This document shows positions 1 to 12,254 of a stretch of 13,439 nucleotides of DNA, piece by piece. The notes below the pieces were generated by a model. The model ran no database searches and was not told where the DNA came from. It saw nothing but the letters and a program-made list of their open reading frames with translations. A program made the translations under genes and the position numbers. This DNA comes from an uncultured Nitrososphaerota archaeon. GTDB taxonomy: Archaea > Korarchaeota > Korarchaeia > Korarchaeales > Korarchaeaceae. The stretch spans positions 1 to 13,439 of the forward strand of contig CAYZRF010000034.1 in the NCBI GenBank assembly GCA_964480775.1, in the 5' to 3' direction. How positions within the stretch are numbered: the first letter of the stretch is position 1; each line of letters starts with the position of its first letter.

Positions 1-675
1 CTCATAAATGACGAATTCATACTTTCCAAATCCTAGAGGCCTTCCTCTCATCTTAATTATTTCCATCATCCTTTTTGGAGGACCAATGGAGGTTTCCGTC
101 AATTCTAATTTAATTAACGCATCCGTAATGAATTCTTCTACGCCATGTCCAACGGATGTCTCACCTACTGGAAGATCGGCTATTATTATGGCAGTTATTC
201 CCATATCCTTACATATTCTGTATAACGTGTTGTGGAAGAGAGCCCTTACATCCATAGGCATGAAGAGATTTGTGAGAGCCGTTATAGAGTCAATGACAAG
301 CCTTTTTGCACCGATTTCCTGGATTTTCTCCAGCATTTCATCAAGAACGGCCTCTACACTCGCTTTTTCAGACGCAGTAAATGCTTCTATAAAACGAAAG
401 AGCCCTTTAGATTCAAGGATTTCAAAATTCATGCCAAGTTGTGCCATGTACGAATAGAATTCCCTTTTAGATTCTGCAAATGAAACGTAAACTCCAGGCT
501 CCTTGTACTTACTAACCCCTTCATGTATGAATTTCGCTGCAAACGTGGATTTTCCAGTTCCTGGATTTCCTGCAAGTAGAACGATGCTGTTTCTGACAAA
601 ACCTCCATTTGTAATCTGGTCAAATCCTGGAATTCCAGTTGGAACGCTCTCTAGCTTCGAATCACCCACATTCAT
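1..675 (-). CDS. KaiC-like RecA-superfamily ATPase (single-domain archaeal KaiC/RadB-like type); 3' end runs off the window
   Basis: Absent from the ORF track because it has no stop inside the window. Hand translation of the minus strand from ATG (complement of 673-675) gives 225 uninterrupted codons: MNVGDSKLESVPTGIPGFDQITNGGFVRNSIVLLAGNPGTGKSTFAAKFIHEG...AKRLVIDSITAL...GVEEFITDALIKLE...MMEIIKMRGRPLGFGKYEFVIYE. Walker A GNPGTGKST lies at nt 544-570. A Walker B-like RLVIDS is present. The N-terminal TGIPGFDxxxxGG and C-terminal KMRG-x-(F/Y)xI motifs are typical of KaiC-family ATPases. The plus-strand ORFs 8..457, 232..483 and 503..736 are its shadows. Confidence 0.85.
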   Translation of the reverse strand, partial: MNVGDSKLESVPTGIPGFDQITNGGFVRNSIVLLAGNPGTGKSTFAAKFIHEGVSKYKEPGVYVSFAESKREFYSYMAQLGMNFEILESKGLFRFIEAFTASEKASVEAVLDEMLEKIQEIGAKRLVIDSITALTNLFMPMDVRALFHNTLYRICKDMGITAIIIADLPVGETSVGHGVEEFITDALIKLELTETSIGPPKRMMEIIKMRGRPLGFGKYEFVIYE

Positions 676-786: not shown

Positions 787-905
787 TAAACCTCTTTAAG
801 AACAGATACTACTTGCGCCTGTAATGCATAACTCTTGCATTGTTTTTGTTTAGCTCATGGGGAAAGATCCTATCTCTGACAACTCACTCTTGGGAAAAAG
901 AGCAA

Positions 906-1898
906 CTAAAAGATTGGAAAGGGAATTTCTGAACCTAAAAGACCTGCCAACTTCTTTTTAAGATCCTCTAAGTCCTTAGCTTCGACCATCTCTATTCCAA
1001 ACGATTTTACAAAGCCCTTTGTCTCTTTTGAGAACTTTTTGGTTGAAGCGAGGACAAACCTCTTTTCTCCTCCTTCTGGCGATCTAGAGACATCTATAAT
1101 TTTTGTTATGAAAGGTGCAACTTCCTCTGGTGAGAGGGCTCCTTTTCCGCCGTAGATATCCACTAAGTATTCCTTCCCATCCTTCATGGCTCTAAGGGAA
1201 AAAGTGTGGGTGACCCCAGACATCCCCTTAACTGATGGCTTAACGGTTACGCTGAAGCCCTTGCTCTTCAGATCATCCGAAAACATTGATGGCTTAGCTA
1301 CAAGCTTAGAAAGCTCATCCAAGGCCTCTGGATTAAGCCTATAGGAATAGAGACCTTTTCTTTTTGCTTCTCTCTCAAGGAACCTATGCCTGTACTTTAT
1401 GCAAATGTACACCATCTCTGTTTGGAAGAAACTTCCACAAGACTTACACCTAAACATGTCTTCAATTAATTTGTATTCTTCCTCAGGCAATTTAAGTAGT
1501 TCCCCGCATTTGGGGCACTTCAAGCTGCCATCCTGCTGAACGAACTTGTCTACGAAGTCTACGTGTCCACATTTAATGTGTTTAATGGCATCTCCTTTCT
1601 CAAGAACTAAAGAACCACAAAAAGGACATGCAGGCTGGCTCATACGAACAGAAGAACCACAACGAGGACATATAACTTGTTCTCCAATCTTTTTCCTTAT
1701 AAGAATTCCTTGCTCTGCCAATTCCTCCAGAATTTTCTCAGAAGGGTCCAATCCTAAAGATTCTAACTCTCGATAGATATATCCTCTATATGGATCAAAT
1801 TCAGGTGTCAATTCATAATTTTGATGATCTAAAAGCCACTCTAGGAATATCCTAATGTCTTCTCTTTTGGAAACAACCGAAGTCAACATGCCAATCAC
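906..1898 (-). CDS. wHTH + multi-Zn-ribbon + alpha/beta C-terminal domain protein, paralog A (function unknown, regulator-like)
   Basis: The ORF begins at GTG (1898). The N-terminal alignment with paralog B (MLTSVVSKREDIRIFLEWLL vs MSTSKLFEREDVRTLLEWLL) favours ATG at 1889. An N-terminal helix-rich wHTH-like segment (ILEELAEQGILIRKK) is followed by CPRC...CPFC, HxxC...CPKC and CKSC...CIKY (nt 1392-1670). A conserved C-terminal domain follows (GVTHTFSLRA...YLVDIYGGKG...APFITKIIDV...FGIEMVEAKDLEDL). Confidence 0.85.
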   Translation of the reverse strand: MIGMLTSVVSKREDIRIFLEWLLDHQNYELTPEFDPYRGYIYRELESLGLDPSEKILEELAEQGILIRKKIGEQVICPRCGSSVRMSQPACPFCGSLVLEKGDAIKHIKCGHVDFVDKFVQQDGSLKCPKCGELLKLPEEEYKLIEDMFRCKSCGSFFQTEMVYICIKYRHRFLEREAKRKGLYSYRLNPEALDELSKLVAKPSMFSDDLKSKGFSVTVKPSVKGMSGVTHTFSLRAMKDGKEYLVDIYGGKGALSPEEVAPFITKIIDVSRSPEGGEKRFVLASTKKFSKETKGFVKSFGIEMVEAKDLEDLKKKLAGLLGSEIPFPIF

Positions 1899-1940: not shown

Positions 1941-2040
1941 ATCCTAAAAAATTAGGATCATAATGCCCTGTCCACGTGTACAATCCATTCTTAAACTCAG
2001 AAAACATGTATTTATGACGTACCTACAAGGAATTCAGTTA

Positions 2041-2095
2041 AAGAAAAACGATTCGGCTTCAAACTCTGAGATAAGGATGATGACTCACTAGTCAT
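2041..2095 (-). terminator. Putative terminator after the GT2 gene
   Basis: A 6-bp stem ATGACT/AGTCAT with a 4-nt loop lies at 2080-2095, just after the stop codon (2098-2100). A minus-strand T5 run follows (plus-strand AAAAA at 2044-2048). Archaeal termination typically uses oligo-T. Confidence 0.4.
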
Positions 2096-2097
2096 TA

Positions 2098-3345
2098 TTA
2101 CTTCCAACGAATTTCCCTCTTGAGCAGACCGTCCAAATATCCTTTCAGACGAACCAACCCATGAATAGGCCTGTAAAATAGTATGGCCAGTGGCAAAACG
2201 AAGAGTACCCAAAATTCGCCTCTTTTTGGTGTTAAAATCCATGAAACAATTCCTAGGATGAGTTCGTTGATGAAGTAAAAGGGGATCATCAAGCCGTAAA
2301 CTGCAAAAGTAAGTTCGGGATGAAACGCTAGAAAATAAATTAACCAGATCAACTTCAAGCTAGTTGCCGCAAGATCATAAAAAACCATAGAAGGTACTCC
2401 AAGAAGGCCTGGGGTTCCAAAGAACGGATTGAATAGCAGGTCTCTGTGTTTGATAAGGGTTTCCAACTGCCCCTTTGACCACCTAATCCTCTGATTCATC
2501 CAATCTCTAAATGTCTCGGGGGCTCTTGTCCATGCAACTGCTTGCGGGGAAAACCTGACCCTCATCCTCGTTTTGTGTATTTTCAGTGTAAAATCGAAGT
2601 CTTCTGTTATAGTATCAGCGTCAAACATTCCAGTGGAAGTCAAGACTCTTCTCTTTGCCGCACCGTAGGCCCCAGGGATTATTAGGACGGTTCCTACAAG
2701 GCCATAAAACCTTCTTCCACTCTCCATACTTGTCATATATTCGTAGGCTTGAAGCTTGCACCAGAGAGATTCTCTATTAAGCACCTTAACGTTTCCCGCA
2801 ACGCCTCCTGTGTTAGGAAGCTGAAAGAACTTTACAAGTTCCCATAGGCTACCTCTTTCTATTAGCGTGTCTGCATCCATCACGACAACTATTTCACCTC
2901 TCGAAAACATCAACCCATAGTTCACTGCATATGCCTTTTTTCCACTTGGAGGCCTCCTCAGCAGCCTTATTTTTCCCTCTTTAGCGTATTTTGATGCTAT
3001 TTCATAGGTTCTGTCTGTTGAACCATCATCGACGACAATGACTTCCTTGTTTGGATACGGATCCTCAAGAACGGACAATATGCACCCCTCTATAGTCTCC
3101 TCCTCGTTATGAGCTGGGATTATCACTGAAATACTAGGAAAATAACTTTTCGTGAAGCCATATGGTCTAATTCTCCTGTATAGTTCGTGAAGGGGGAGCA
3201 CTATAGCCTTCGTAATCGTTCGAGTTAGGTCAAAGAGTATAGGAACAAGCAGGATGGAAATTGCTTGTTTGGGAGCGACTCCTAAGAAATTTAGGTATTC
3301 AAGGACTAAGTTCTTTACAAAATCCAAGACCATATGAATTCTCAC
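2098..3345 (-). CDS. Processive family-2 glycosyltransferase, PgaC/IcaA/NodC-like beta-glycan (probably hexosamine polymer) synthase, membrane-embedded
   Basis: 415 aa. Motifs: IIPAHNEE; VVDDGSTD (DDG at aa 106-108); DAD (nt 2869-2877, verified); TITEDFDF (TED at aa 247-249); PET...QRIRW (nt 2479-2493, verified). Has an N-terminal TM helix and about 3 C-terminal TM helices. Start is GTG 3345, directly after the upstream stop. An alternative ATG at 3333 is preceded by a GTGAG Shine-Dalgarno-like element (SD-like). Confidence 0.9.
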   Translation of the reverse strand: MRIHMVLDFVKNLVLEYLNFLGVAPKQAISILLVPILFDLTRTITKAIVLPLHELYRRIRPYGFTKSYFPSISVIIPAHNEEETIEGCILSVLEDPYPNKEVIVVDDGSTDRTYEIASKYAKEGKIRLLRRPPSGKKAYAVNYGLMFSRGEIVVVMDADTLIERGSLWELVKFFQLPNTGGVAGNVKVLNRESLWCKLQAYEYMTSMESGRRFYGLVGTVLIIPGAYGAAKRRVLTSTGMFDADTITEDFDFTLKIHKTRMRVRFSPQAVAWTRAPETFRDWMNQRIRWSKGQLETLIKHRDLLFNPFFGTPGLLGVPSMVFYDLAATSLKLIWLIYFLAFHPELTFAVYGLMIPFYFINELILGIVSWILTPKRGEFWVLFVLPLAILFYRPIHGLVRLKGYLDGLLKREIRWK

Positions 3346-4128
3346 TTACTCTACGACCCTAACCAAGAATTCGCAGTATGGATCTCCTCTAGAAATGCAC
3401 TTCCTTTCATCAACCGTGCAATCAGAGCCAAACACACCACTAAAGAACCCTGCTATAACCCCCCTGATAAACTGACTTCCCTTCATATCCCTTGAAAGAG
3501 CGCATTCAAAGTTCTTTTCCAGCCTAATTACAGCGATTTCATTGTCCAAGTCTATCTTGAAGGAAGATCCACTAACCCAACCCAAACTCTGAATTATGTC
3601 TAAGGCAGCCTGAATTAGCTCTTTGCCCTCAAGTCCGAGCCTTCTCTTCCATATCTCATAGGCTTCTCTGCCTCCTCCGTAACCCAGGTGATAAATGAAG
3701 ACCCTTCCGCCAGTTCCCCACCTCTTGTATATGTCCGCAAATATGCCAACGAGCCAATCAGCCCTGAAAAGCACCGCTCTCTCATCGAAGAACTCCAGCG
3801 TGGAGTGATGAACGTCTAAGAAAAGGGGCTTATCTAAAGCGGGAGTCCAAGCTATCTTTCTAACTCCTCCTACTTTTGCCAAGTCCGATGCAAGCTCATC
3901 TGGGTTGGTATCACCTAGATCTGCGAAAAAGCACCACCACGTGGCATTTGGCTCCTCGGACTTGTGATGAACCCCGTAAAGTATGTTGATCCCTCTCTTA
4001 GCTATCACATCAGAGACTTTGGCCAACATTCCTGGAATGTCTTCCATCAAAATCGAGACCTCTACCAGCTTCCTACCTTTGAGTTCAACAACCCTCCATA
4101 GAGGCAACTTGTGCATGGGATCAGGCAT
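3346..4128 (-). CDS. ACT domain + V4R (4-vinyl-reductase-type) small-molecule-binding domain protein
   Basis: 260 aa. The ACT-like beta-alpha-beta-beta-alpha-beta segment VEVSILMEDIPGMLAKVSDVIAKRGINILYG spans about nt 3850-4068. The C-terminal V4R pattern spans about nt 3355-3816 and ends in the hallmark C-x6-C-x7-C / GDPYCEF (CTVDERKCISRGDPYCEFLV). The stop TAA (3346-3348) is immediately followed by the GT2 start. Confidence 0.8.
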   Translation of the reverse strand: MPDPMHKLPLWRVVELKGRKLVEVSILMEDIPGMLAKVSDVIAKRGINILYGVHHKSEEPNATWWCFFADLGDTNPDELASDLAKVGGVRKIAWTPALDKPLFLDVHHSTLEFFDERAVLFRADWLVGIFADIYKRWGTGGRVFIYHLGYGGGREAYEIWKRRLGLEGKELIQAALDIIQSLGWVSGSSFKIDLDNEIAVIRLEKNFECALSRDMKGSQFIRGVIAGFFSGVFGSDCTVDERKCISRGDPYCEFLVRVVE

Positions 4129-4182
4129 CTCTTCCGCACTCCCTTTTTCTGATGAAGTTGAAAGGATAAAAAACTATACAAT

Positions 4183-5043
4183 TCAGCCCAGAATGAAGGT
4201 ATAGTATATCAAATTCAGGAAGAACAGTAACAACATGGAAACAGTTACCCTAGATCCTGTTTTGCCGTACATGGTTTCCACACCTCGCCATAACGTTATG
4301 AACTTCATCAACAGAGGGGAGATTAATGCAAACAATATGACGATCGAAAGAGTTAGGGGAGATAACTTTACCAAATGAGAATAAAATTGGAGAATGGGAA
4401 TCCCAAAAAGACCCAAAAATAACAAGTGAGCGAAATCTGCTGTAAGAACAATTTTCGAACCCTTTATGGCCTCAGAGAATTCAGGTTTACTTATTAACAT
4501 GCCAGCAAGCAGACCAATAGCAAGACTTTGTGCTATGAAAAGCATTGTGCCTAACAATAAGCCAAAGAAGCCCCTTAGAAAGGGTAAGTTCTGAAATAAT
4601 GTTGGAGGCAAGAAGAAGTTCGCAATTCTCTCGCCAAGAGCCGATAAAGCTAATCCGAACTCCAAACTGTAGCCCTGTCTTGCAACCAATGACGAAAAAA
4701 CAGAAATTAATGTCCCAACAGCAAACACCTTCCAAACTAGAATTCTAACAGGAGTATTTGATACCTTTTGGAAGAATTCCCTCGCTTTAGCTTCAGAGAA
4801 GGGCGTCAGGATGGAGGTAAATATGCTTGGAGCTCTTAATTGCTCAACTCTTCTATCTTTCTTTTCAACCCTGGGAGGCTCAACAAAAGAAAAAGCTTCT
4901 AAAAGCTCTGCTTGAAGATTAACTACAGCTCTCATGAGATCTATTGCCTCATCTAACTGAGAGTTTGTCGAAGGTGCGCTGACGTATTCCAGCTTGTCTC
5001 TAAGATTCATCATCATCCCTTGGGATATTAGAACCACTTCCAT
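4183..5043 (-). CDS. Multi-pass (about 5 TM) membrane protein with a roughly 100-aa cytoplasmic helical N-terminus, unknown family
   Basis: 286 aa. Hydrophobic segments: VRILVWKVFAVGTLISVFSSLVA, FFGLLLGTMLFIAQSLAIGLLAGMLI, FAHLLFLGLFGIPILQFY, LTLSIVILFALISPLLMKFITL, VTVSMLLLFFLNLIYYTFILG. The topology resembles Yip1-type proteins, but I cannot verify that. Alternative Met starts lie at aa 10-12. Confidence 0.75.
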   Translation of the reverse strand: MEVVLISQGMMMNLRDKLEYVSAPSTNSQLDEAIDLMRAVVNLQAELLEAFSFVEPPRVEKKDRRVEQLRAPSIFTSILTPFSEAKAREFFQKVSNTPVRILVWKVFAVGTLISVFSSLVARQGYSLEFGLALSALGERIANFFLPPTLFQNLPFLRGFFGLLLGTMLFIAQSLAIGLLAGMLISKPEFSEAIKGSKIVLTADFAHLLFLGLFGIPILQFYSHLVKLSPLTLSIVILFALISPLLMKFITLWRGVETMYGKTGSRVTVSMLLLFFLNLIYYTFILG

Positions 5044-5139: not shown

Positions 5140-6441
5140 TTAAGCGTATTCTAGCTTGCTTTGTATTTTCTCCTTTACATCTCTTATTTTCCTCAGTAAT
5201 GGGATAAATCTCTCTCCTCCTTCTTTCTTAGTCAAGCTCATAGCTAACATCTCCATTTGCTCTACAACATTAAGAAGACTCTTGTAAAATTCAGGACCAG
5301 GCTCAACAGCCTTATCGGCCATCTTTTCTTCGATTTCTCTTATCTTTTTGAAACTTGCAGCTAACTCTCGATGTTCTCTAGGTAGGACTTCTTCTATGTC
5401 AACTTCTGGAGCCGAAACTCTCCTTGTTTCTGGGACAAGAGCTTTAGTTTCTACGGGAACTGGGAGATGAATCTCAGATTCTATATGATCCGCAAGTCTT
5501 TTCTTCAGATCGTTAATATCTCCAGCCTCGATAATCTCTATACCAAAGGATTTGGCAATGTTCTTTGCATCATCTGAAACTCTTTGCGTCGAAGCTAAAA
5601 TGTATCTTCTTTGTCCCTCTTTTCCAGGCATCCCTGAAAGATCTATAACTTTTGTTATGAAAGGAGCTACGTTTTCCGAAGAAAGAATACCTTTTCCGCC
5701 ATATATGTCTACTAAATACTCAGTTCCGTTCTTTTTAGCCCTCAACGAGAAAGTATGCGTAACTCCAGATTTACCTCTCACTGAAGGCTTTCCTACGACC
5801 TTAAATCCTCTATTTTCCAGCTCTCCTGAGAACATTGATGGCCAGAAAATCAGCTCAGATAGTTTTCTTAATGCGTCGGGTTTTATTTTGTAGGAGTAAA
5901 GGGTCTTCATCTTTCCTTCTTTTTCCTTGAACTTATGATGACATTTAACACAGAGATATACTTTCTCGGGTGCTTCAAAGAAGTTGCCGCAAGATTTACA
6001 CTTGAAAATATCTCCAAGTCTTCTATAATCCTTACCAATCAGTCTAAGAGTCTTCCCACAACTTGGACATTTGAGGCTGCCGTCTGGCTGTAGGAACTCT
6101 TCCTCAAAACCAACGTAACCGCAGCCATAGTGCTCGATAACTTCTCCTTTCTGAAGATTGGAAGAACCACAATACGAACATGCTTGCTGGGTTATGTGAA
6201 GGGGGGATTCACACTTCGGACATACCAAGTATTCTCCTACCTTTTCTTTTGTCAGAATTCCTTGTTTCGCAAGTTCTTCTAGGATTTTACCGCTAGGATC
6301 TAATCCTAACAACTCTAATTCAGGGTAAATGTAGCCTCTAGATGGATGCAGTTCAGGTGAGAGTTCCATATCTTGGTTCTCTAGCAGCCATTCGAGTAGT
6401 GTTCTGACATCTTCCCTTTCAAAGAGTTTTGATGTCGACAT
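5140..6441 (-). CDS. wHTH + multi-Zn-ribbon + alpha/beta C-terminal domain protein, paralog B, with an extra C-terminal helical extension
   Basis: 433 aa, colinear with paralog A over about 320 aa. Cys/His ligand set: CPKC...CSYC, HxxC...CPSC, CKSC...CVKC (nt 5941-6222). A 52-aa hand-aligned stretch (KPSV..IDLS) is 42/52 identical to paralog A. The C-terminal roughly 110 aa (nt 5143-5469) has no counterpart in A. Confidence 0.9.
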   Translation of the reverse strand: MSTSKLFEREDVRTLLEWLLENQDMELSPELHPSRGYIYPELELLGLDPSGKILEELAKQGILTKEKVGEYLVCPKCESPLHITQQACSYCGSSNLQKGEVIEHYGCGYVGFEEEFLQPDGSLKCPSCGKTLRLIGKDYRRLGDIFKCKSCGNFFEAPEKVYLCVKCHHKFKEKEGKMKTLYSYKIKPDALRKLSELIFWPSMFSGELENRGFKVVGKPSVRGKSGVTHTFSLRAKKNGTEYLVDIYGGKGILSSENVAPFITKVIDLSGMPGKEGQRRYILASTQRVSDDAKNIAKSFGIEIIEAGDINDLKKRLADHIESEIHLPVPVETKALVPETRRVSAPEVDIEEVLPREHRELAASFKKIREIEEKMADKAVEPGPEFYKSLLNVVEQMEMLAMSLTKKEGGERFIPLLRKIRDVKEKIQSKLEYA

Positions 6442-6605: not shown

Positions 6606-8186
6606 TTGATCATGAAAAGAGAAACAGAGGAAGGCAAAATAGAGTACAAGCTTAAGCTAAACGCACAAACAGAGGAAAGATTGCAAAAACTGGCAACACA
6701 ACTTGCTTACAGGTTAGGTGAAGGCGGTGGGGAGGCCTTTTACGAGCTTGGAGTCTCTGATGATGGAGAACCGCTTGGTTTGACTGAAGAAGAGGCAAGG
6801 GAATCGTTTAAAATTATGGAACAAATAAGTAAGACGGTAGGAGCTTCCTTTATAGTCGTTAGAAAGGAAAAAGCGAAGAGAGGTTATGTGTATGAACTTC
6901 TTGTGAGGAAAACAGTTGATTCTCCACCTATTCAAATATCTGTAGCGCTTCTGGGAAACGTAGATGCAGGAAAATCCACCCTAAAGGGCGTACTAGTTTA
7001 CGGAACCCTTGATGACGGCGATGGAAAGGCAATGAGCTTGGTTGCCAAGTACTTACACGAGCTAAAGTTCAGAAGGTCATCATCCGTTTCAGTTCATGTC
7101 CTTGGTTTCAATGAAATGGGAGAGTCCATCAATGACTCCCTTAGAACTTACGATGAGGCCAAGGTGTACTTAGAAGGGTCAAAAATAGTCACTCTGATAG
7201 ACCTTGCTGGTCATGAGAGGTATTTGAAAACAACGATGAGAGGAGTTCTTGGACATCTCCCTGACTACACTTGCATGGTAGTTGGTGCCAACGCGGGTCC
7301 AATAGGCACGTTTAGAGAACACTTAGGAATGACCGTTGCCCTTGGAATACCTTGCTTCGTTGTGATCACAAAGGTAGATATGGCTCCCCAAGCAGTGCTG
7401 GAGAGAAACTTGGAAAAGGTTATACACCTCTTAAAGTTACCAGGAATTAACAAAATACCCTTCATAATAAGAAGCAAGAATGATGCAGCTATTGCAGCAA
7501 GACACATGCCCCATGGAAGGGTAGCCCCCATATTCCTTATCTCAAATGTCACTGGTCAGGGCTTGCAGGAACTCAAAGCATTTCTCAACATGCTCCCACC
7601 AAAAATAGACTGGCACGAGAGGGCTAAAGGAAAGTTCCTGTGCTACATCGATGAGAAGTTTGATGTGTCTGGAGTTGGGCTTGTGGTTGCGGGTTTGGTG
7701 GAGGAGGGAACCGTTAAGAGCGGAGACCGAGTGCTTCTTGGACCCTTTGATGATGGATCCTTCAGAACTGTAAGGGTTAAGTCAATAGAGGTGAACAGAG
7801 TCCGAGTTGAAAGGGCTGAGGCAGGACAAATCGCAGCTTACGCAATTACAAACGCCAAGTATGAGGAAATAAGAAGAGGAATGGTATTGCTAGATCTTGA
7901 TGCCACGCCTGTAGCTGTAAGAAAGTTTAGGGCTCACATAAGGGTTCTGCATCACCCAACAACCATAAAAGTCGGATATGAGCCAGTTATTCAGATGAAA
8001 ACGATAAGGCAAGCCGCAAGACTCGTAAATACCACGAATAAATTCCTGAGAAGCGGAGACACCGATATGGTTGAGTTTTACTTCATTCTTAGACCAGAGT
8101 ATGTCAGGAAGGGAGATGTATTCTTCTTCAGGGAAGGTAGGACAAAGGGTATAGGAACGGTGGTTGGGATTAGTGGAACATCCTAA
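6606..8186 (+). CDS. GTPBP1-like (GP-1 family) translational-type GTPase, EF-1alpha/SelB-related
   Basis: 526 aa. G1 GNVDAGKST (nt 6954-6980, verified), G3 DLAGHERY, G4 TKVD (T instead of N, as I recall for GTPBP1 proteins). Has a roughly 110-aa N-terminal extension, then beta-barrel domains II/III (GVGLVVAGLVEEGTVKSGDRVLLGP...). The track start is TTG 6606; ATG 6612 is equally or more likely. Confidence 0.85.
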   Translation: MIMKRETEEGKIEYKLKLNAQTEERLQKLATQLAYRLGEGGGEAFYELGVSDDGEPLGLTEEEARESFKIMEQISKTVGASFIVVRKEKAKRGYVYELLVRKTVDSPPIQISVALLGNVDAGKSTLKGVLVYGTLDDGDGKAMSLVAKYLHELKFRRSSSVSVHVLGFNEMGESINDSLRTYDEAKVYLEGSKIVTLIDLAGHERYLKTTMRGVLGHLPDYTCMVVGANAGPIGTFREHLGMTVALGIPCFVVITKVDMAPQAVLERNLEKVIHLLKLPGINKIPFIIRSKNDAAIAARHMPHGRVAPIFLISNVTGQGLQELKAFLNMLPPKIDWHERAKGKFLCYIDEKFDVSGVGLVVAGLVEEGTVKSGDRVLLGPFDDGSFRTVRVKSIEVNRVRVERAEAGQIAAYAITNAKYEEIRRGMVLLDLDATPVAVRKFRAHIRVLHHPTTIKVGYEPVIQMKTIRQAARLVNTTNKFLRSGDTDMVEFYFILRPEYVRKGDVFFFREGRTKGIGTVVGISGTS

Positions 8187-8869: not shown

Positions 8870-9109
8870 ATGACTAGGGTGAAGGTCACTAGAAGCTATC
8901 AGGTCACGATACCCAAAGAGATAAGGGAAAGAATAGGGCTAAAGGAAGGAGATTACTTACAAGTTGAAGTTGACGACGAAGGAAGGATAATAATGTCTAA
9001 ATCTAGGAGAGAAAGGAGGACTTTGAGAGCTGGTAGGCCTCTTAAGCCTGATGAGATAGAGAAGCTCATAGAGCTTGGAATCAAGAGAAGTCTCATTTCT
9101 GGTGAGTAA
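8870..9109 (+). CDS. vapB: AbrB/SpoVT-fold antitoxin (VapB-like)
   Basis: 79 aa. VKVTRSYQVTIPKEIRERIGLKEGDYLQVEVDDEGRIIM is a classic swapped-hairpin AbrB/MazE N-terminal motif. The basic/acidic C-terminal tail, small size and overlap with a PIN gene fit an antitoxin. Confidence 0.85.
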   Translation: MTRVKVTRSYQVTIPKEIRERIGLKEGDYLQVEVDDEGRIIMSKSRRERRTLRAGRPLKPDEIEKLIELGIKRSLISGE

Positions 9110-9542
9110 ATTGGCATCAGCAGTGTTGGATACCAACGTCATCGTGTACGACACATTCGAGGACTCGTTGTATCACGAGATGGCCAGAGAACTCCTGGAC
9201 TCCCTCGACGTGTGGGTCCTACCTCTGATAGTGCTATACGAGTATGTCTGGTTGATGAAAGAGCTAGGCGTTAACCTTGAGGACATCTCAGCTAAAGTGT
9301 ATGAGTACGCTTGGGACCCTAAGGCTAGGGTTACTTCAGGAGGAAAGGACGCAGTTAGGTGGGCTTTAGCGGATCTCATGGAGGAGAGGCTATCCGCATC
9401 TAGGTTCAACGATAAGGTGGTATTGTCAGTAGCCGAGAGGGAAGGAATTCCTCTAGCTACTTTTGACAGGGGGCTGAGAGTTCAGGCTCATAGGGTAAAC
9501 GTAGAGGTGCTCCCTATCTCTATTGATGTGCATGAATCTTGA
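9102..9542 (+). CDS. vapC: PIN-domain ribonuclease toxin (VapC-like)
   Basis: The track ORF starts at 9075. The likely start is GTG 9102, overlapping the vapB stop by 8 nt (GTGAGTAA), or TTG 9111. Conserved PIN acidic residues in expected contexts: VLDTNVIVY, LYEYVW, FNDKVV, LATFD. Confidence 0.85.
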   Translation: MSKLASAVLDTNVIVYDTFEDSLYHEMARELLDSLDVWVLPLIVLYEYVWLMKELGVNLEDISAKVYEYAWDPKARVTSGGKDAVRWALADLMEERLSASRFNDKVVLSVAEREGIPLATFDRGLRVQAHRVNVEVLPISIDVHES

Positions 9543-9917
9543 GATTATTTGCTTGATCTCAGCACCGTCTCTTGTTAGTTCCAAGGACTCTTATTCTCTC
9601 CAATTTCTTCCTAAGGATGCCCCCTATCCCTATTTTGCTAGCCGAAGACTGCTTGCAAACTCAAGTAGCATGCGACGATGCCTGTTAGAGCTGTTTGAGG
9701 GATTATATGGGATGCTAACCACCAGAAATAGACAGGGCAGGAAGAAAGGATTATCGGGTTAACAAGACTAAATGCAAGTTAAAGCTCCATAGATTCGACG
9801 TATCATTTGCTGAAGACGAAATATAATCACTGTTTTCAAATAATATATCCTGATGTTGTTGGTTAATCCGAGATGCCAGTATAAACCTTAAAGAACCCTA
9901 GCTATTTTCTATCAAGA

Positions 9918-12254
9918 ATGAACTCTTATCGGTGCATTGTTCTCCTAATTGTGCTTTTCTTAACTAATATTACTCCTTTGTTCTCCCAACGAGAAGTTTC
10001 CAGCTTTTTGGAATTATATGGAGTAAGAGCAGTTCAACTGGACTTGGACTTAATTTATGACCCAAACCAGGTCGAATTTAGAAGGAGAGTTGATCTTGTA
10101 CTTGATAGACTGATTTCGATAGGTGCTAATTTAGTTCTCCTTCAAGTTTTTCAAGATCCAGATGGAGACGGTTCCGCCAACGGAGTCTACTTCAAGACAG
10201 ACATGGCTCCAAGTTTAGATGCTTTAGGAACATTCTTGGAGGAGGCAAGAGAGAGGAACATCAAGATTTTTGCGTGGATGACCACACTAACATGTTCTTG
10301 GGTATTAGAGGAACATCCAAACTGGGAAATCTTGTCCTTCGATCCCGATTCAGGGAGTTATGTCACGGGGAAGTACTGGTACAGGAGAGCTTCACCATTC
10401 TGTGACGACTTTGTGGCATATTTAAGGGATCTTTATGCTGATCTTGCCTCCTACCCGCTAGACGGAATTCTTCTACAAGATGATCTCTACTTAGGCGAGT
10501 GGGAAGATTTCAGCGAATGGGCTAGATCAGCATTTAGGAAAGAATACGGATTAGAACTGACACCCTCGTTGTTAAAGATGGGAGGTTGGAGGGAAAAATG
10601 GATTAATTGGAAAGCAGAGCGACTTATGCACATTGCAAGGATTTTAGAGGAAACAGTTAAGGAAAGGAGACCTGAAGCCATCTTTTCAATCGATGTGTAC
10701 TCTGATGTGCTCATATATGATGACGCCTCTTCTTGGCTAGCTCAAGACAAGAACCTCCTTGCAAATTCGGATTTTTTCATGGTGATAATGGCCTATCCAT
10801 TTTTGGAAAATGCAGATAATCCAGAAGAGTGGATGGAAGCTGTAGCAAGGGAAGCCGTTACTGTATTTGGAAAAGGAAAAACTCTGATAAAGGTACAATC
10901 TTACGACTGGAAAAATGAATTGTGGATCCCTTCTAATGTTTTTAGTTCGATCATAGAAGCAGCATATGAAGGAGGAGCCGTAAATGTGGGGTACTATCCT
11001 GAAGACCCGTTTTCAGGAATTCCAGACGCTCAAACAGTTAGGAATGCCTTCTTAGTTTATGGAACAACTCCATCAAGACCCGTTCATGTTCTTATGCTTT
11101 CTAACTCAGTAGATTTGCCAGCGGCAAGAAAACTTGCTGTCAACATCGGAAGGCACGGAGTATTGGTGACATTAACTAACGAAAATGTAAACATTTCTCG
11201 AGGTGCTATGATAATTCTTGGGGGTCCTAAAGCATATGAGGGCATAGGAGATATTTCAAACGGTTATTTGCCAAAACCCCAGGCTGAAAAGCTTATTTCA
11301 GAGGAAGATTCGATGGTTTCGATTGTTAGCAGGAAGAATGAAATAGACTATGTGATAATAGCCGGACACACAAGAATAGAAACTGCTAGAGCAGCGTCAG
11401 AATTTCCTGCGCCATGGATAAGGCTTACAGCCCTTTCTGACTACATTCTGGGTTGTAGACCAGTGAGACTAGGACCTGTAGTTTATTCTTATCAGGGGGT
11501 TACTTTCGAAGACCTGAGCAAGGTAAACGCAACAATTCTCGTCGTAGATCCAGATGATTCGAGATTAAGCAAGGAGGACACAGTTAAACTCCACGAGCAG
11601 GGGAAGACTGTTATAGCATATCTAAGCATAGGGCAAGCAGAATCTTACAGATCATACTGGGACGATAAATGGGAACTGGATACACCTCGCTGGCTGGGAA
11701 CAGAGGATCTGGAGTGGCCTGAGAACTATTGGGTTAGGTACTGGGACCAAGAATGGAAGAATATTGTGTTTACTTGCTTGCATGAAATTATCGAAAAAGG
11801 CTTCGATGGAGTCTTATTGGACAGAGTTGACGCATACGAGTATTGGGAGGACAAAGGCGTGCTAGACGCCAAACAGAAGATGCTGAATTTCGTTTTAGAA
11901 ATATCAGCGAGGGCAAAGCAAGAGAGATGTTTCCTCATAATTCCTCAAAACGCTGAGGAGCTGATAGAGGACCATCATTACTTGGAAGCGATAGATGGGG
12001 TAAGTTCTGAAGATGTCTGGACCATTGGAAACGATGAGAGACCTCAAGATGAGGTTGAACTCAGGTTGAACACACTAGATAGAATTATCTCACGTGGAAA
12101 ATTAGTATTGGTCTTAGATTATCCTTCTTCGGCTAAAATGAGGGAGATATTCTGCTTAAAGGCGAGGGAAAGGGGATATATTCCATATTCCTCCTCAATC
12201 GACCTTTCAGGCATAAATTACGATTTCCTAAATAGGTGCTGGGAAGCCCCCTAA
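9918..12254 (+). CDS. Secreted two-module polysaccharide-processing protein: PgaB-C-terminal-like (GHL13) domain + alpha/beta linker domain + GH114/TM1410-MJ1477-like domain
   Basis: 778 aa. Signal peptide: MNSYRCIVLLIVLFLTNITPLFSQ. Module 1 (about nt 10020-11012): AVQLDLDLIYDP...LISIGANLVLLQVFQDPDGDGSANGVYFKT...IKIFAWM...LDGILLQDDLYL, which matches my memory of the PgaB C-terminal domain (VDLDYVYDPD, LQAFADPDGDG, AWMP, DGILFHDD). Module 3 (about nt 11460-12212): ILVVDPDD...VIAYLSIGQAESYRSYW...NYWVRYWDQEWKNI...GFDGVLLDRVDAYEYW, the GH114/TM1410-type signature. The middle domain (about nt 11070-11417) is unassigned. No C-terminal anchor. Confidence 0.85.
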   Translation: MNSYRCIVLLIVLFLTNITPLFSQREVSSFLELYGVRAVQLDLDLIYDPNQVEFRRRVDLVLDRLISIGANLVLLQVFQDPDGDGSANGVYFKTDMAPSLDALGTFLEEARERNIKIFAWMTTLTCSWVLEEHPNWEILSFDPDSGSYVTGKYWYRRASPFCDDFVAYLRDLYADLASYPLDGILLQDDLYLGEWEDFSEWARSAFRKEYGLELTPSLLKMGGWREKWINWKAERLMHIARILEETVKERRPEAIFSIDVYSDVLIYDDASSWLAQDKNLLANSDFFMVIMAYPFLENADNPEEWMEAVAREAVTVFGKGKTLIKVQSYDWKNELWIPSNVFSSIIEAAYEGGAVNVGYYPEDPFSGIPDAQTVRNAFLVYGTTPSRPVHVLMLSNSVDLPAARKLAVNIGRHGVLVTLTNENVNISRGAMIILGGPKAYEGIGDISNGYLPKPQAEKLISEEDSMVSIVSRKNEIDYVIIAGHTRIETARAASEFPAPWIRLTALSDYILGCRPVRLGPVVYSYQGVTFEDLSKVNATILVVDPDDSRLSKEDTVKLHEQGKTVIAYLSIGQAESYRSYWDDKWELDTPRWLGTEDLEWPENYWVRYWDQEWKNIVFTCLHEIIEKGFDGVLLDRVDAYEYWEDKGVLDAKQKMLNFVLEISARAKQERCFLIIPQNAEELIEDHHYLEAIDGVSSEDVWTIGNDERPQDEVELRLNTLDRIISRGKLVLVLDYPSSAKMREIFCLKARERGYIPYSSSIDLSGINYDFLNRCWEAP

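Follow-up and report, generated by a model that had tools for sequence, protein, structure and literature searches.

An ACT-V4R protein encoded beside a processive membrane glycosyltransferase in Korarchaeota: a possible optional regulator of exopolysaccharide synthesis

Introduction

By what means archaea start and stop the synthesis of exopolysaccharides and biofilms is virtually unexplained; the bacterial homologues of their synthases are gated by GGDEF proteins and cyclic di-GMP (c-di-GMP) (PMC10086821). The question is raised by a stretch of 13,439 nucleotides from an uncultured archaeon (contig CAYZRF010000034.1, here called the window), in which a gene for a small protein with an ACT and a V4R domain (ACT-V4R) lies directly upstream of a gene for a synthase of glycosyltransferase family 2 (GT2). 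Both genes are on the minus strand in the list of open reading frames (ORFs), and database copies of the window's proteins carry the label Candidatus Korarchaeota. GGDEF proteins are nearly absent from archaea, where PgaC-like and cellulose-synthase-like GT2 genes are present (Römling review, PMC10086821), and an input of another kind is therefore needed. An earlier note on this DNA had proposed ACT-V4R as that input, a metabolite-responsive gate of the synthase.

Here, the proposal was followed up by computational analysis. A functional link between ACT-V4R and the synthase is plausible, and the reading that we prefer, tentatively and at somewhat less than an even chance, is that ACT-V4R is an optional, ligand-sensing accessory regulator acting by protein contact on an exopolysaccharide synthase module. 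This reading builds on the folds of the proteins, the structure of the operon, evidence of purifying selection and V4R genes that recur beside GT2 in several lineages, all of which are documented below.

Results

ACT-V4R has the features of a stand-alone sensor

Two domains of ACT-V4R scored above their Pfam cut-offs, ACT (PF01842) at residues 23-78 (E 8e-8, 32.3 bits against a cut-off of 27) and V4R (PF02830) at residues 200-257 (E 2e-11, 44.1 bits against 31). The AlphaFold2 (AF2) model, based on an alignment of 43 family members, reached a predicted local distance difference test score (pLDDT) of 95.1 and a predicted template modelling score (pTM) of 0.89. Its N-terminal part follows the beta-alpha-beta-beta-alpha-beta order of the ACT fold, with strands at residues 21-29, 48-56, 62-70 and 89-96 and helices at 34-44 and 76-84. 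This part matches IlvN, the small subunits of acetohydroxyacid synthase (AHAS) and the ACT domain of phosphoglycerate dehydrogenase (PGDH) in Foldseek and hidden Markov model (HMM) comparisons. The P32-G33 loop between beta1 and alpha1 is conserved in 104 and 112, respectively, of about 150 family members.

Residues ~100-258 are modelled as a complete V4R/Bet3 fold in which five helices pack on a four-stranded antiparallel sheet. Searched against the PDB, the family profile found MopR (5kbe, E 1e-13) and also MJ1460, PoxR and DmpR, while Foldseek returned MopR and PoxR (E ~1e-8, target TM-score 0.65) together with DmpR, MJ1460 and TRAPPC3/Bet3, at a probability of 1.00. V4R is the prokaryotic homologue of Bet3, and glycine doublets are the hallmark of both (PMC2253512); here they appear as G149-x3-G153 and G223-x3-G227, present in 160, 159 and 162, 157 of the 163 family members. 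The earlier note had stated that the domain keeps a C-x6-C-x7-C/GDPYCEF signature. The motif is present as C237-x6-C244-x7-C252 and residues 248-254, but C237 is not conserved, its position being usually V, M, I or L across the 163 members. The conserved set consists of C209 (144/163), E241 (162/163), C244 (161/162) and C252 (160/162), and the last three align with the E-x2-C-x7-C stretch of MopR. A fourth zinc ligand is not found at the MopR position, where the cysteine of MopR aligns to a Ser/Gln position of the family, and C209 is the candidate for it. These residues suggest a MopR-type V4R domain that is probably stabilised by zinc.

No transmembrane segment was predicted in ACT-V4R from hydrophobicity, and no DNA-binding or enzymatic domain was found with Pfam and NCBIfam. 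Domain matches, model and Foldseek results together with the lack of a hydrophobic segment bear out the earlier description of a soluble protein with two sensor domains. The ratio of nonsynonymous to synonymous substitution rates (dN/dS) is 0.05-0.07 against relatives, and the gene is under strong purifying selection. The family is large: an exhaustive HMMER search gave 904 representative clusters at E<1e-3, reduced to 420 at the stricter E<1e-10, with full-length members of about 260 amino acids. As modelled, ACT-V4R is a putative stand-alone small-molecule sensor with a predicted ligand pocket in its V4R domain.

The neighbouring gene encodes a PgaC-like processive synthase

The GT2 product matches the Pfam GT2 families, and its best NCBIfam model is PgaC_IcaA (TIGR03937, E 4e-53). 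At 180.8 bits it stays below the equivalog cut-off of 422.3, and the protein is PgaC-like but no PgaC equivalog. It carries the invariant motifs DDG (D106/D107), DAD (D157/D159), ED (E248-D249) and QRxRW (Q285-R286-x-R288-W289) and has hydrophobic helices at the N- and C-terminus. The AF2 model (pLDDT 91.6) was matched by Foldseek over its full length to hyaluronan synthases of Chlorella virus and Xenopus (query TM-score 0.72), to BcsA (0.62) and to chitin synthases, and by this structural comparison the protein is a genuine processive membrane synthase. The polymer is probably rich in N-acetylglucosamine (GlcNAc) or N-acetylgalactosamine (GalNAc), a reading that the GHL13-GH114 hydrolase encoded nearby fits.

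The conserved junction is a short spacer

The earlier note had rested much on the junction of the two genes, where the TAA stop of ACT-V4R directly abuts an in-frame GTG and an alternative in-frame ATG lies 12 nucleotides further on. Both details were confirmed in the sequence. Seven loci (the window, L001-L004, L008 and L009) were compared at this point, and the ATG of GT2 was kept in 7/7. Of these loci, the window and L001-L004 alone have a GTG right after the stop; that of L008 comes 4 nucleotides later and in a frame other than that of ACT-V4R, and the junction of L009 is without one. In a further relative on a 104-kb contig (L168) the match to GT2 starts at 9735, directly after the ACT-V4R stop. 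A purine-rich, Shine-Dalgarno-like element (GTGAGA, GTGGGA or AACGGA) stands 8-12 nucleotides upstream of the ATG in the compared junctions, and a 411-residue GT2 product starting at the ATG is already recorded for this contig (P0008). Because only the ATG is conserved, with the purine-rich element upstream and this product on record, the synthase probably starts at the ATG, 12-18 nucleotides after the ACT-V4R stop. Judged from these junctions, the conserved feature is a spacer of 12-18 nucleotides carrying a putative ribosome-binding site, not zero bases. Of the claim that the genes are translationally coupled, the tight operon stands, and co-transcription and coupled translation fit it; the abutment without intervening bases is not conserved among relatives. 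Such tight spacing is ordinary in compact archaeal operons and is unremarkable alone. Read-through of the stop codon into an ACT-V4R-GT2 fusion was rejected as a conserved feature, the spacer of L008 being 16 nucleotides long and out of frame.

A TATA-like and a purine-rich element upstream of ACT-V4R, a hairpin and T-run downstream of GT2, and a separate TATA-like element that appears to precede the second of two TackOD1 genes in the window together suggest that ACT-V4R and GT2 form one two-gene transcription unit. The hairpin and T-run past the GT2 stop are the likely end of this unit, and the 54-nucleotide spacer 5' of ACT-V4R could possibly hold a promoter and ribosome-binding site of its own. 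A scan of the window for bacterial promoters and terminators gave results no better than those from shuffled sequences; such models are bacterial and uninformative for an archaeon.

Linkage holds throughout a Korarchaeal clade and recurs elsewhere

The closest homologues of ACT-V4R (74-98% identity) are all Korarchaeal. Throughout this clade ACT-V4R lies directly upstream of GT2, at a divergence where synonymous sites are saturated. The Korarchaeal gene order is TackOD1, membrane protein, ACT-V4R, GT2 and then a KaiC-like ATPase, with a second TackOD1 between GT2 and the ATPase in the window and L168.

Orthologues of the GT2 (41-60% identity to that of the window) occur widely across Bathyarchaeia, Nitrososphaerota, Aigarchaeota and related groups. 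A sampling that took GT2 as its starting point covered 12 archaeal lineages with GT2s at most 69% identical to each other, some of them on short contigs. Among the matches listed by a metagenome scan with the GT2 alignment, which relied on a generic pattern, the informative ones were L088, L089 and L096. A V4R-family gene was found within 7 kb of GT2 in 6/12 of these lineages, and it shares an operon with GT2 in the Korarchaeota and in one lineage labelled Nitrososphaerota (L175). The operon of L175 consists of a Ras-like GTPase, TackOD1, GT2 (45% identical) and an ACT-V4R of a different subfamily from that of the window, 49 nucleotides downstream of GT2. In L006 an ACT-V4R (39% identical) is divergent from a 58%-identical GT2 with one small membrane ORF between; that ORF (855-1175, plus strand) encodes 106 amino acids with three hydrophobic segments and belongs to no family. 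A full-length family member in the Aigarchaeota (L171) lies 5 kb off on the other strand with unrelated genes between, and in L172 and L174 proteins with V4R only (189-201 amino acids) are encoded in operons that flank the GT2 cluster. An impression gained from the ACT-V4R side, that the adjacency is confined to Korarchaeota, was overturned by this sampling.

The ACT-V4R proteins linked to GT2 fall in at least three subfamilies of a neighbour-joining tree, which points to repeated recruitment. Their genes stand upstream of GT2 in Korarchaeota, divergent in L006 and downstream in L175, and the linkage thus survives rearrangement of gene order. The chance of finding 6/12 was P=0.0095 when tandem copies within 2 kb were excluded from the background, and P=4e-5 with the V4R density of Ignicoccus hospitalis, calculated with an assumed genome size. 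This species is cited as unusually V4R-rich and is the source of the paralogue count (PMC2253512). With the density in the flanks of ACT-V4R loci, a background inflated by tandem paralogues, the value was P=0.074. An association of V4R with GT2 that is real but facultative is suggested by these results.

Other proteins were seen in the position beside the synthase. L170 encodes a protein with a faint CBS match directly beside GT2 (5450-6256, minus strand), and L173 a ParA/CbiA-type ATPase with a weak BcsQ-like match (3360-4184, minus strand). These cases hint that the slot is filled by varied accessory proteins.

Observations that weigh against a dedicated synthase regulator

The adjacency was also viewed from the ACT-V4R family, in a scan of one genome per species that gave 80 loci, all in metagenome-assembled genomes of TACK/Thermoproteota, often with several paralogues per genome. 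The results argue against a general role of the family at this synthase. GT2 stands beside ACT-V4R in 2/80 loci (L008 and L009, both Korarchaeal), and 78/80 are without it. None of the 52 immediate same-strand neighbours belongs to the GT2 family (Glycos_transf_2); two match GHL10 glycoside-hydrolase-like proteins, and the remainder are spread over many unrelated Pfam families. The closest outgroups (L010-L012, 41-43% identity) are not linked to GT2 and have as neighbours a methyltransferase, a pyridoxal-phosphate (PLP) enzyme, anthranilate synthase, a PIG-L protein, a racemase or a KaiC-like ATPase. From the GT2 side, half of the 12 lineages are without a V4R gene nearby, and the enrichment loses significance once the most conservative background is assumed (P=0.07, with only 12 lineages). 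No natural ACT-V4R-GT2 fusion was found among the listed homologues. In L009 ACT-V4R is intact (dN/dS 0.05 against L008) beside a GT2 that has lost its catalytic domain, and, as described in the next section, it is TackOD1 and not ACT-V4R whose overlap of stop and start marks it as a constant partner.

The conserved adjacency that the earlier note had put up for checking therefore holds for the Korarchaeal clade, L006 and L175 but not for the 78 other loci of the family scan. Consistent linkage to amino-acid biosynthesis, which the same note had named as a result that would speak against a synthase gate, did not emerge as a pattern; L010 is the one locus with anthranilate synthase and a PLP enzyme in its vicinity. 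A family-wide association with KaiC, Roadblock, Ras or TackOD1 genes was likewise rejected, with 3, 0, 0 and 0 matches at the 78 non-Korarchaeal loci. As a whole, ACT-V4R is a general-purpose sensor family and not a family of synthase subunits.

Positions 1-3800 of L009, which comes from the same metagenome-assembled genome as L008, hold the locus in a decayed form, with a truncated or frameshifted TackOD1, no gene for the membrane protein and a GT2 of which residues ~1-59 and 326-415 remain, but with an intact KaiC-like ATPase. L168, the closest long relative, has a first TackOD1 (7626-7937) with a large internal deletion and a GT2 (9735-10978) split by a change of frame near residue 66, reflecting either pseudogenisation or assembly error.

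TackOD1 is the near-constant neighbour of the synthase

A TackOD1 gene (PF18551) adjoins GT2 in 11/12 archaeal lineages, and stop and start of the two genes often overlap or abut (for example in L175, L089 and L173). The observation covers the window and the loci L007, L088, L089, L096 and L169-L175. TackOD1 was absent from 666 kb of unrelated TACK flanks, and a search for homologues gave six matches. The domain is fused to a KaiC ATPase in L169 and, on a 995-kb contig that is probably bacterial (L096), to GGDEF (6673-7788); this TackOD1-GGDEF gene overlaps the start of GT2 and lies upstream of OEP and HlyD genes. TackOD1 had previously been described only as a thaumarchaeal response-regulator output domain of 'obscure' function (PMC5847659). 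Of the neighbours seen here it is the strongest candidate for a core regulator or receptor of the synthase. The module would be centred on TackOD1, with variable inputs from KaiC-like ATPases, Ras-like GTPases, Roadblock, V4R and ACT-V4R.

In stand-alone TackOD1 proteins the zinc ribbons are followed by a conserved C-terminal block, GRSGVxHxF ... D ... AKAxD ... YGI..VEA (alignment A6), which spans residues ~225-320 of the protein encoded at 906-1898 of the window. The L174 copy has a weak Mrr_cat match, and in L096 the block is replaced by GGDEF; it may be a separate effector domain.

Other features of the window

The features are listed in Table 1. On the strand of ACT-V4R and GT2 are the two TackOD1 genes, a gene for a membrane protein of 286 amino acids and the start of the gene for the KaiC-like ATPase. 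The membrane protein has a soluble N-terminal part of ~95 residues followed by ~5 hydrophobic helices; it was seen in the Korarchaeal clade only, where relatives are just 46% identical. L168, L001 and L009 have a 466-residue KaiC-like gene at the position corresponding to the truncated one, and the plus-strand ORF at 8..457 (149 amino acids) is an antisense shadow of this gene and not a gene itself.

The plus strand encodes an EF-Tu-like GTPase, a PIN protein and the secreted GHL13-GH114 fusion. The GHL13 part of the fusion is like the C-terminal domain of PgaB (TIGR03938, E 4e-53), and its GH114/MJ1477-family part is above the cut-off of TIGR01370 (236 bits); the fusion is kept in Korarchaeal relatives and is the likely polymer-processing or dispersal enzyme of the locus. 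The PIN-domain protein (9075-9542; PF01850, E 7e-13) is overlapped by a small upstream ORF (8870-9109), and the pair (8870-9542, plus strand), which sits between the GTPase and hydrolase genes, resembles a VapBC-type toxin-antitoxin. A pair of PIN and ribbon-helix-helix (RHH) genes directly follows GT2 in L006. Neither tRNA genes nor Rfam families were found in the window by tRNA and Rfam scans.

Table 1. Positions of genes, domains and predicted signals in the window
Feature	Positions	Strand	Basis
ACT-V4R gene, 260 amino acids, ATG start, soluble	3346..4128	-	ORF; Pfam ACT and V4R above cut-off; AF2
ACT domain, residues ~21-96	3841..4068	-	AF2 secondary structure, Foldseek, HMM
Full V4R (Bet3-like) domain, residues ~100-258	3355..3831	-	Family profile against PDB, Foldseek, residue conservation
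ACT-V4R/GT2 junction: TAA 3348-3346, GTG 3345-3343, Shine-Dalgarno-like GTGAGA 3345-3340, ATG 3333-3331	3331..3348	-	
GT2 synthase, PgaC/hyaluronan-synthase-like, processive; 411 amino acids from ATG	2098..3333	-	
GT2 ORF from GTG, 415 amino acids	2098..3345	-	ORF call
54-nucleotide spacer 5' of ACT-V4R: TATA-like TTTTTTATCC, purine-rich GGGAGTG/GGAAGAG ahead of ATG	4129..4182	-	Sequence reading, inference
Region 3' of GT2 stop: putative hairpin ATGACT-AGTG-AGTCAT (2095-2080), T-run (~2048-2044)	2040..2097	-	Sequence reading, inference
286-residue membrane protein without Pfam family	4183..5043	-	Pfam/NCBIfam scan, hydrophobicity
TackOD1 protein 1, 433 amino acids	5140..6441	-	Pfam PF18551, E 1e-38; kept in relatives
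TackOD1 protein 2, 330 amino acids, directly downstream of GT2	906..1898	-	PF18551, E 6e-26; orthologue in L168
KaiC-like ATPase, N-terminal part, extends past window edge	1..675	-	Translation; Walker A GNPGTGKS
Secreted GHL13 + GH114/MJ1477-family fusion, 778 amino acids	9918..12254	+	Family scans; N-terminal hydrophobic segment

Discussion

The recurrence of ACT-V4R beside a membrane-embedded synthase, its absence from many relatives of that synthase and the constancy of TackOD1 are most readily accommodated if ACT-V4R is an accessory that a lineage may have or lack. One member of a TACK family with several paralogues would have been recruited beside GT2 in the Korarchaeal clade. A ligand bound by the ACT domain, the V4R domain or both would change the conformation or oligomeric state of the protein, this change would be relayed by protein contact, either to the synthase at its cytosolic face or to TackOD1, possibly with the KaiC-like ATPase, and the contact would tune the output of polymer. 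What we infer is the regulation itself, its direction, the ligand and the protein contacted. The gate proposed in the earlier note is retained here in a weaker form: an optional accessory fits the data, but stoichiometric allosteric replacement of the c-di-GMP receptors exceeds the evidence.

That stronger form would be a special case of the reading that we prefer, and we regard it as unlikely. ACT-V4R would be a stoichiometric allosteric subunit seated on the cytosolic glycosyltransferase domain or the gating loop of the synthase, a metabolite gate in place of c-di-GMP receptors. The near absence of GGDEF from archaea (PMC10086821) is consistent with it, and so are the immediate same-strand adjacency in Korarchaeota and L175 and the near-adjacency in L006. 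A precedent exists in ACT subunits that stand alone and are encoded beside their catalytic subunit, for instance the small subunits of AHAS. The abutment of the two genes that would speak for stoichiometric partners is not conserved, however, and most GT2 orthologues have no ACT-V4R gene, so that the synthase works without it. Furthermore, it is TackOD1 that is the universal and often translationally coupled neighbour, the V4R-only relatives adjoin Roadblock and GTPase genes and not GT2, and the listed homologues include no fusion.

An absence of any functional link is, in our judgement, also improbable. ACT-V4R would then be a general metabolic sensor or a binder of hydrophobic compounds, and its position would be due to descent in Korarchaeota and to chance elsewhere. 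The abundance of the family, whose paralogues are several to a genome and vary in their neighbours, agrees with this explanation, as do P ~0.07 under the most conservative background, the remote copy of L171 and the persistence of ACT-V4R in L009 without a working GT2 alongside. Descent and chance fit less well with placement in the same operon in two phylum-level groups, in different subfamilies and gene orders, and with the divergent adjacency in L006. In addition, the 12-nucleotide spacer and its embedded ribosome-binding site were kept despite saturated synonymous sites, and less inflated backgrounds give P from 0.0095 down to 4e-5.

Less likely again is a role of V4R as part of a small-GTPase/ATPase switch in the manner of Bet3/TRAPPC3, in which V4R and Roadblock/LC7 would regulate a Ras-like GTPase and a KaiC-like ATPase. 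The GTPase and ATPase would control TackOD1 and the synthase, and the Korarchaeal ACT-V4R would be a metabolite-sensing plug-in of the same network. The operons that flank the GT2 cluster in L172 (1841-4046, minus strand) and L174 (9091-11227, plus strand) are suggestive here, consisting of a fusion of a KaiC ATPase to a Ras/Arf GTPase, Roadblock/LC7 and, last, the V4R-only gene. Ras-like GTPases adjoin TackOD1 and GT2 in L088, L170 and L175, the Korarchaeal locus includes Roadblock and KaiC-like genes, KaiC is fused to TackOD1 in L169, and the V4R fold matches TRAPPC3/Bet3 (Foldseek; PMC2253512, PMC10933270). The Korarchaeal cluster is nevertheless without a Ras-like GTPase, the neighbouring GTPase being EF-Tu-like, and ACT-V4R genes adjoin GT2 and not Roadblock. 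The three-gene operon is known from two loci only, and a prokaryotic V4R that acts on a GTPase has no known biochemical precedent.

That the V4R pocket binds a lipid or another hydrophobic carrier, for example polyprenyl phosphate or a lipid-linked primer, much as a palmitoyl chain is held by Bet3, and delivers it to the synthase or senses it, with ACT adding metabolite control, would agree with the view of V4R as a binder of hydrophobic ligands (PMC2253512) and with Foldseek matches to palmitate-bound TRAPPC3 (6aq3) and phenol-bound MopR, PoxR and DmpR, but it is very improbable, as nothing in the locus indicates lipid-carrier metabolism and processive GT2s of the BcsA, hyaluronan synthase (HAS) and PgaC type need no lipid-linked primer.

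Parallels with known systems help to define what an accessory sensor of this kind would be. The sensor domains of MopR, PoxR and DmpR share the V4R fold with ACT-V4R over ~160 residues, with the E-x2-C-x7-C stretch aligned and a ligand pocket expected. In these bacterial proteins V4R works at the level of transcription, as the cis-fused sensor of an AAA+ sigma-54 activator that also has a DNA-binding domain, whereas ACT-V4R is archaeal, stands alone, is joined to ACT and has no output domain. Like IlvN/IlvH, ACT-V4R is a small soluble protein with an ACT domain whose gene adjoins that of the enzyme it would regulate and is probably co-translated with it, and it matches them in the ACT fold and PG loop; it differs in that its partner would be a membrane glycosyltransferase and that its second domain is V4R and not the ACT-like C-terminal domain.

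Bacterial exopolysaccharide synthases are served by c-di-GMP receptors such as PgaC-PgaD, the PilZ domain of BcsA, PelD and Alg44. The proposed logic is the same, a small-molecule element controlling a processive GT2 post-translationally, but this is an analogy and no membership: Pfam, NCBIfam and transmembrane prediction revealed no PilZ domain, GGDEF I-site or PgaD-like membrane module in ACT-V4R, and ACT-V4R is optional across lineages. The operons of L172 and L174, with V4R, Roadblock and Ras-like GTPase genes beside GT2, are reminiscent of the eukaryotic TRAPP core, in which Bet3/TRAPPC3 and subunits of longin/Roadblock type act on Rab GTPases, and zinc-binding V4R/TRAPPC3 proteins have been described in Asgard archaea (PMC10933270). 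The Korarchaeal locus differs from TRAPP in its lack of a Ras-like GTPase, and an ACT fusion is not known in TRAPP. MsvR, a redox regulator of methanogens, is another archaeal V4R protein with conserved cysteines, and its NCBIfam model matches residues 196-256 of ACT-V4R (E 3e-7, far below the cut-off). It acts on transcription through an N-terminal DNA-binding domain (PMC3729527), a domain that ACT-V4R is without.

A wider reading takes these elements together, and we hold it to be doubtful. The hyaluronan/PgaC-like synthase of TACK archaea would be run by a previously undescribed control module centred on TackOD1 as the synthase-coupled receptor. Several of its parts (V4R, Roadblock/LC7, Ras/Arf and KaiC-like proteins) would have relatives among the proteins that regulate membrane traffic in eukaryotes, ACT-V4R would be the form of V4R that senses metabolites, and bacteria would wire the module to c-di-GMP through the GGDEF fusion.

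The domains discussed here are well known, and no link of V4R, ACT-V4R or TackOD1 to a polysaccharide synthase was found in the literature searched; the possible pairing of an exopolysaccharide synthase with a sensor of ACT-V4R type would be a novel form of a familiar type of regulation. Should the connection be one of position alone, this would be an unexceptional exopolysaccharide cluster that adjoins the gene of a sensor not yet characterised. If instead ACT-V4R, or the set of TackOD1, KaiC, GTPase, Roadblock and V4R proteins, does control the synthase, the on/off control of exopolysaccharide synthesis in archaea would become a question that is testable with small soluble proteins. The 'obscure' TackOD1 domain (PMC5847659) would gain its first cellular role, and V4R/Bet3-like and Roadblock proteins would gain a first concrete prokaryotic context, one that would bear on the origin of the eukaryotic complexes that regulate GTPases.

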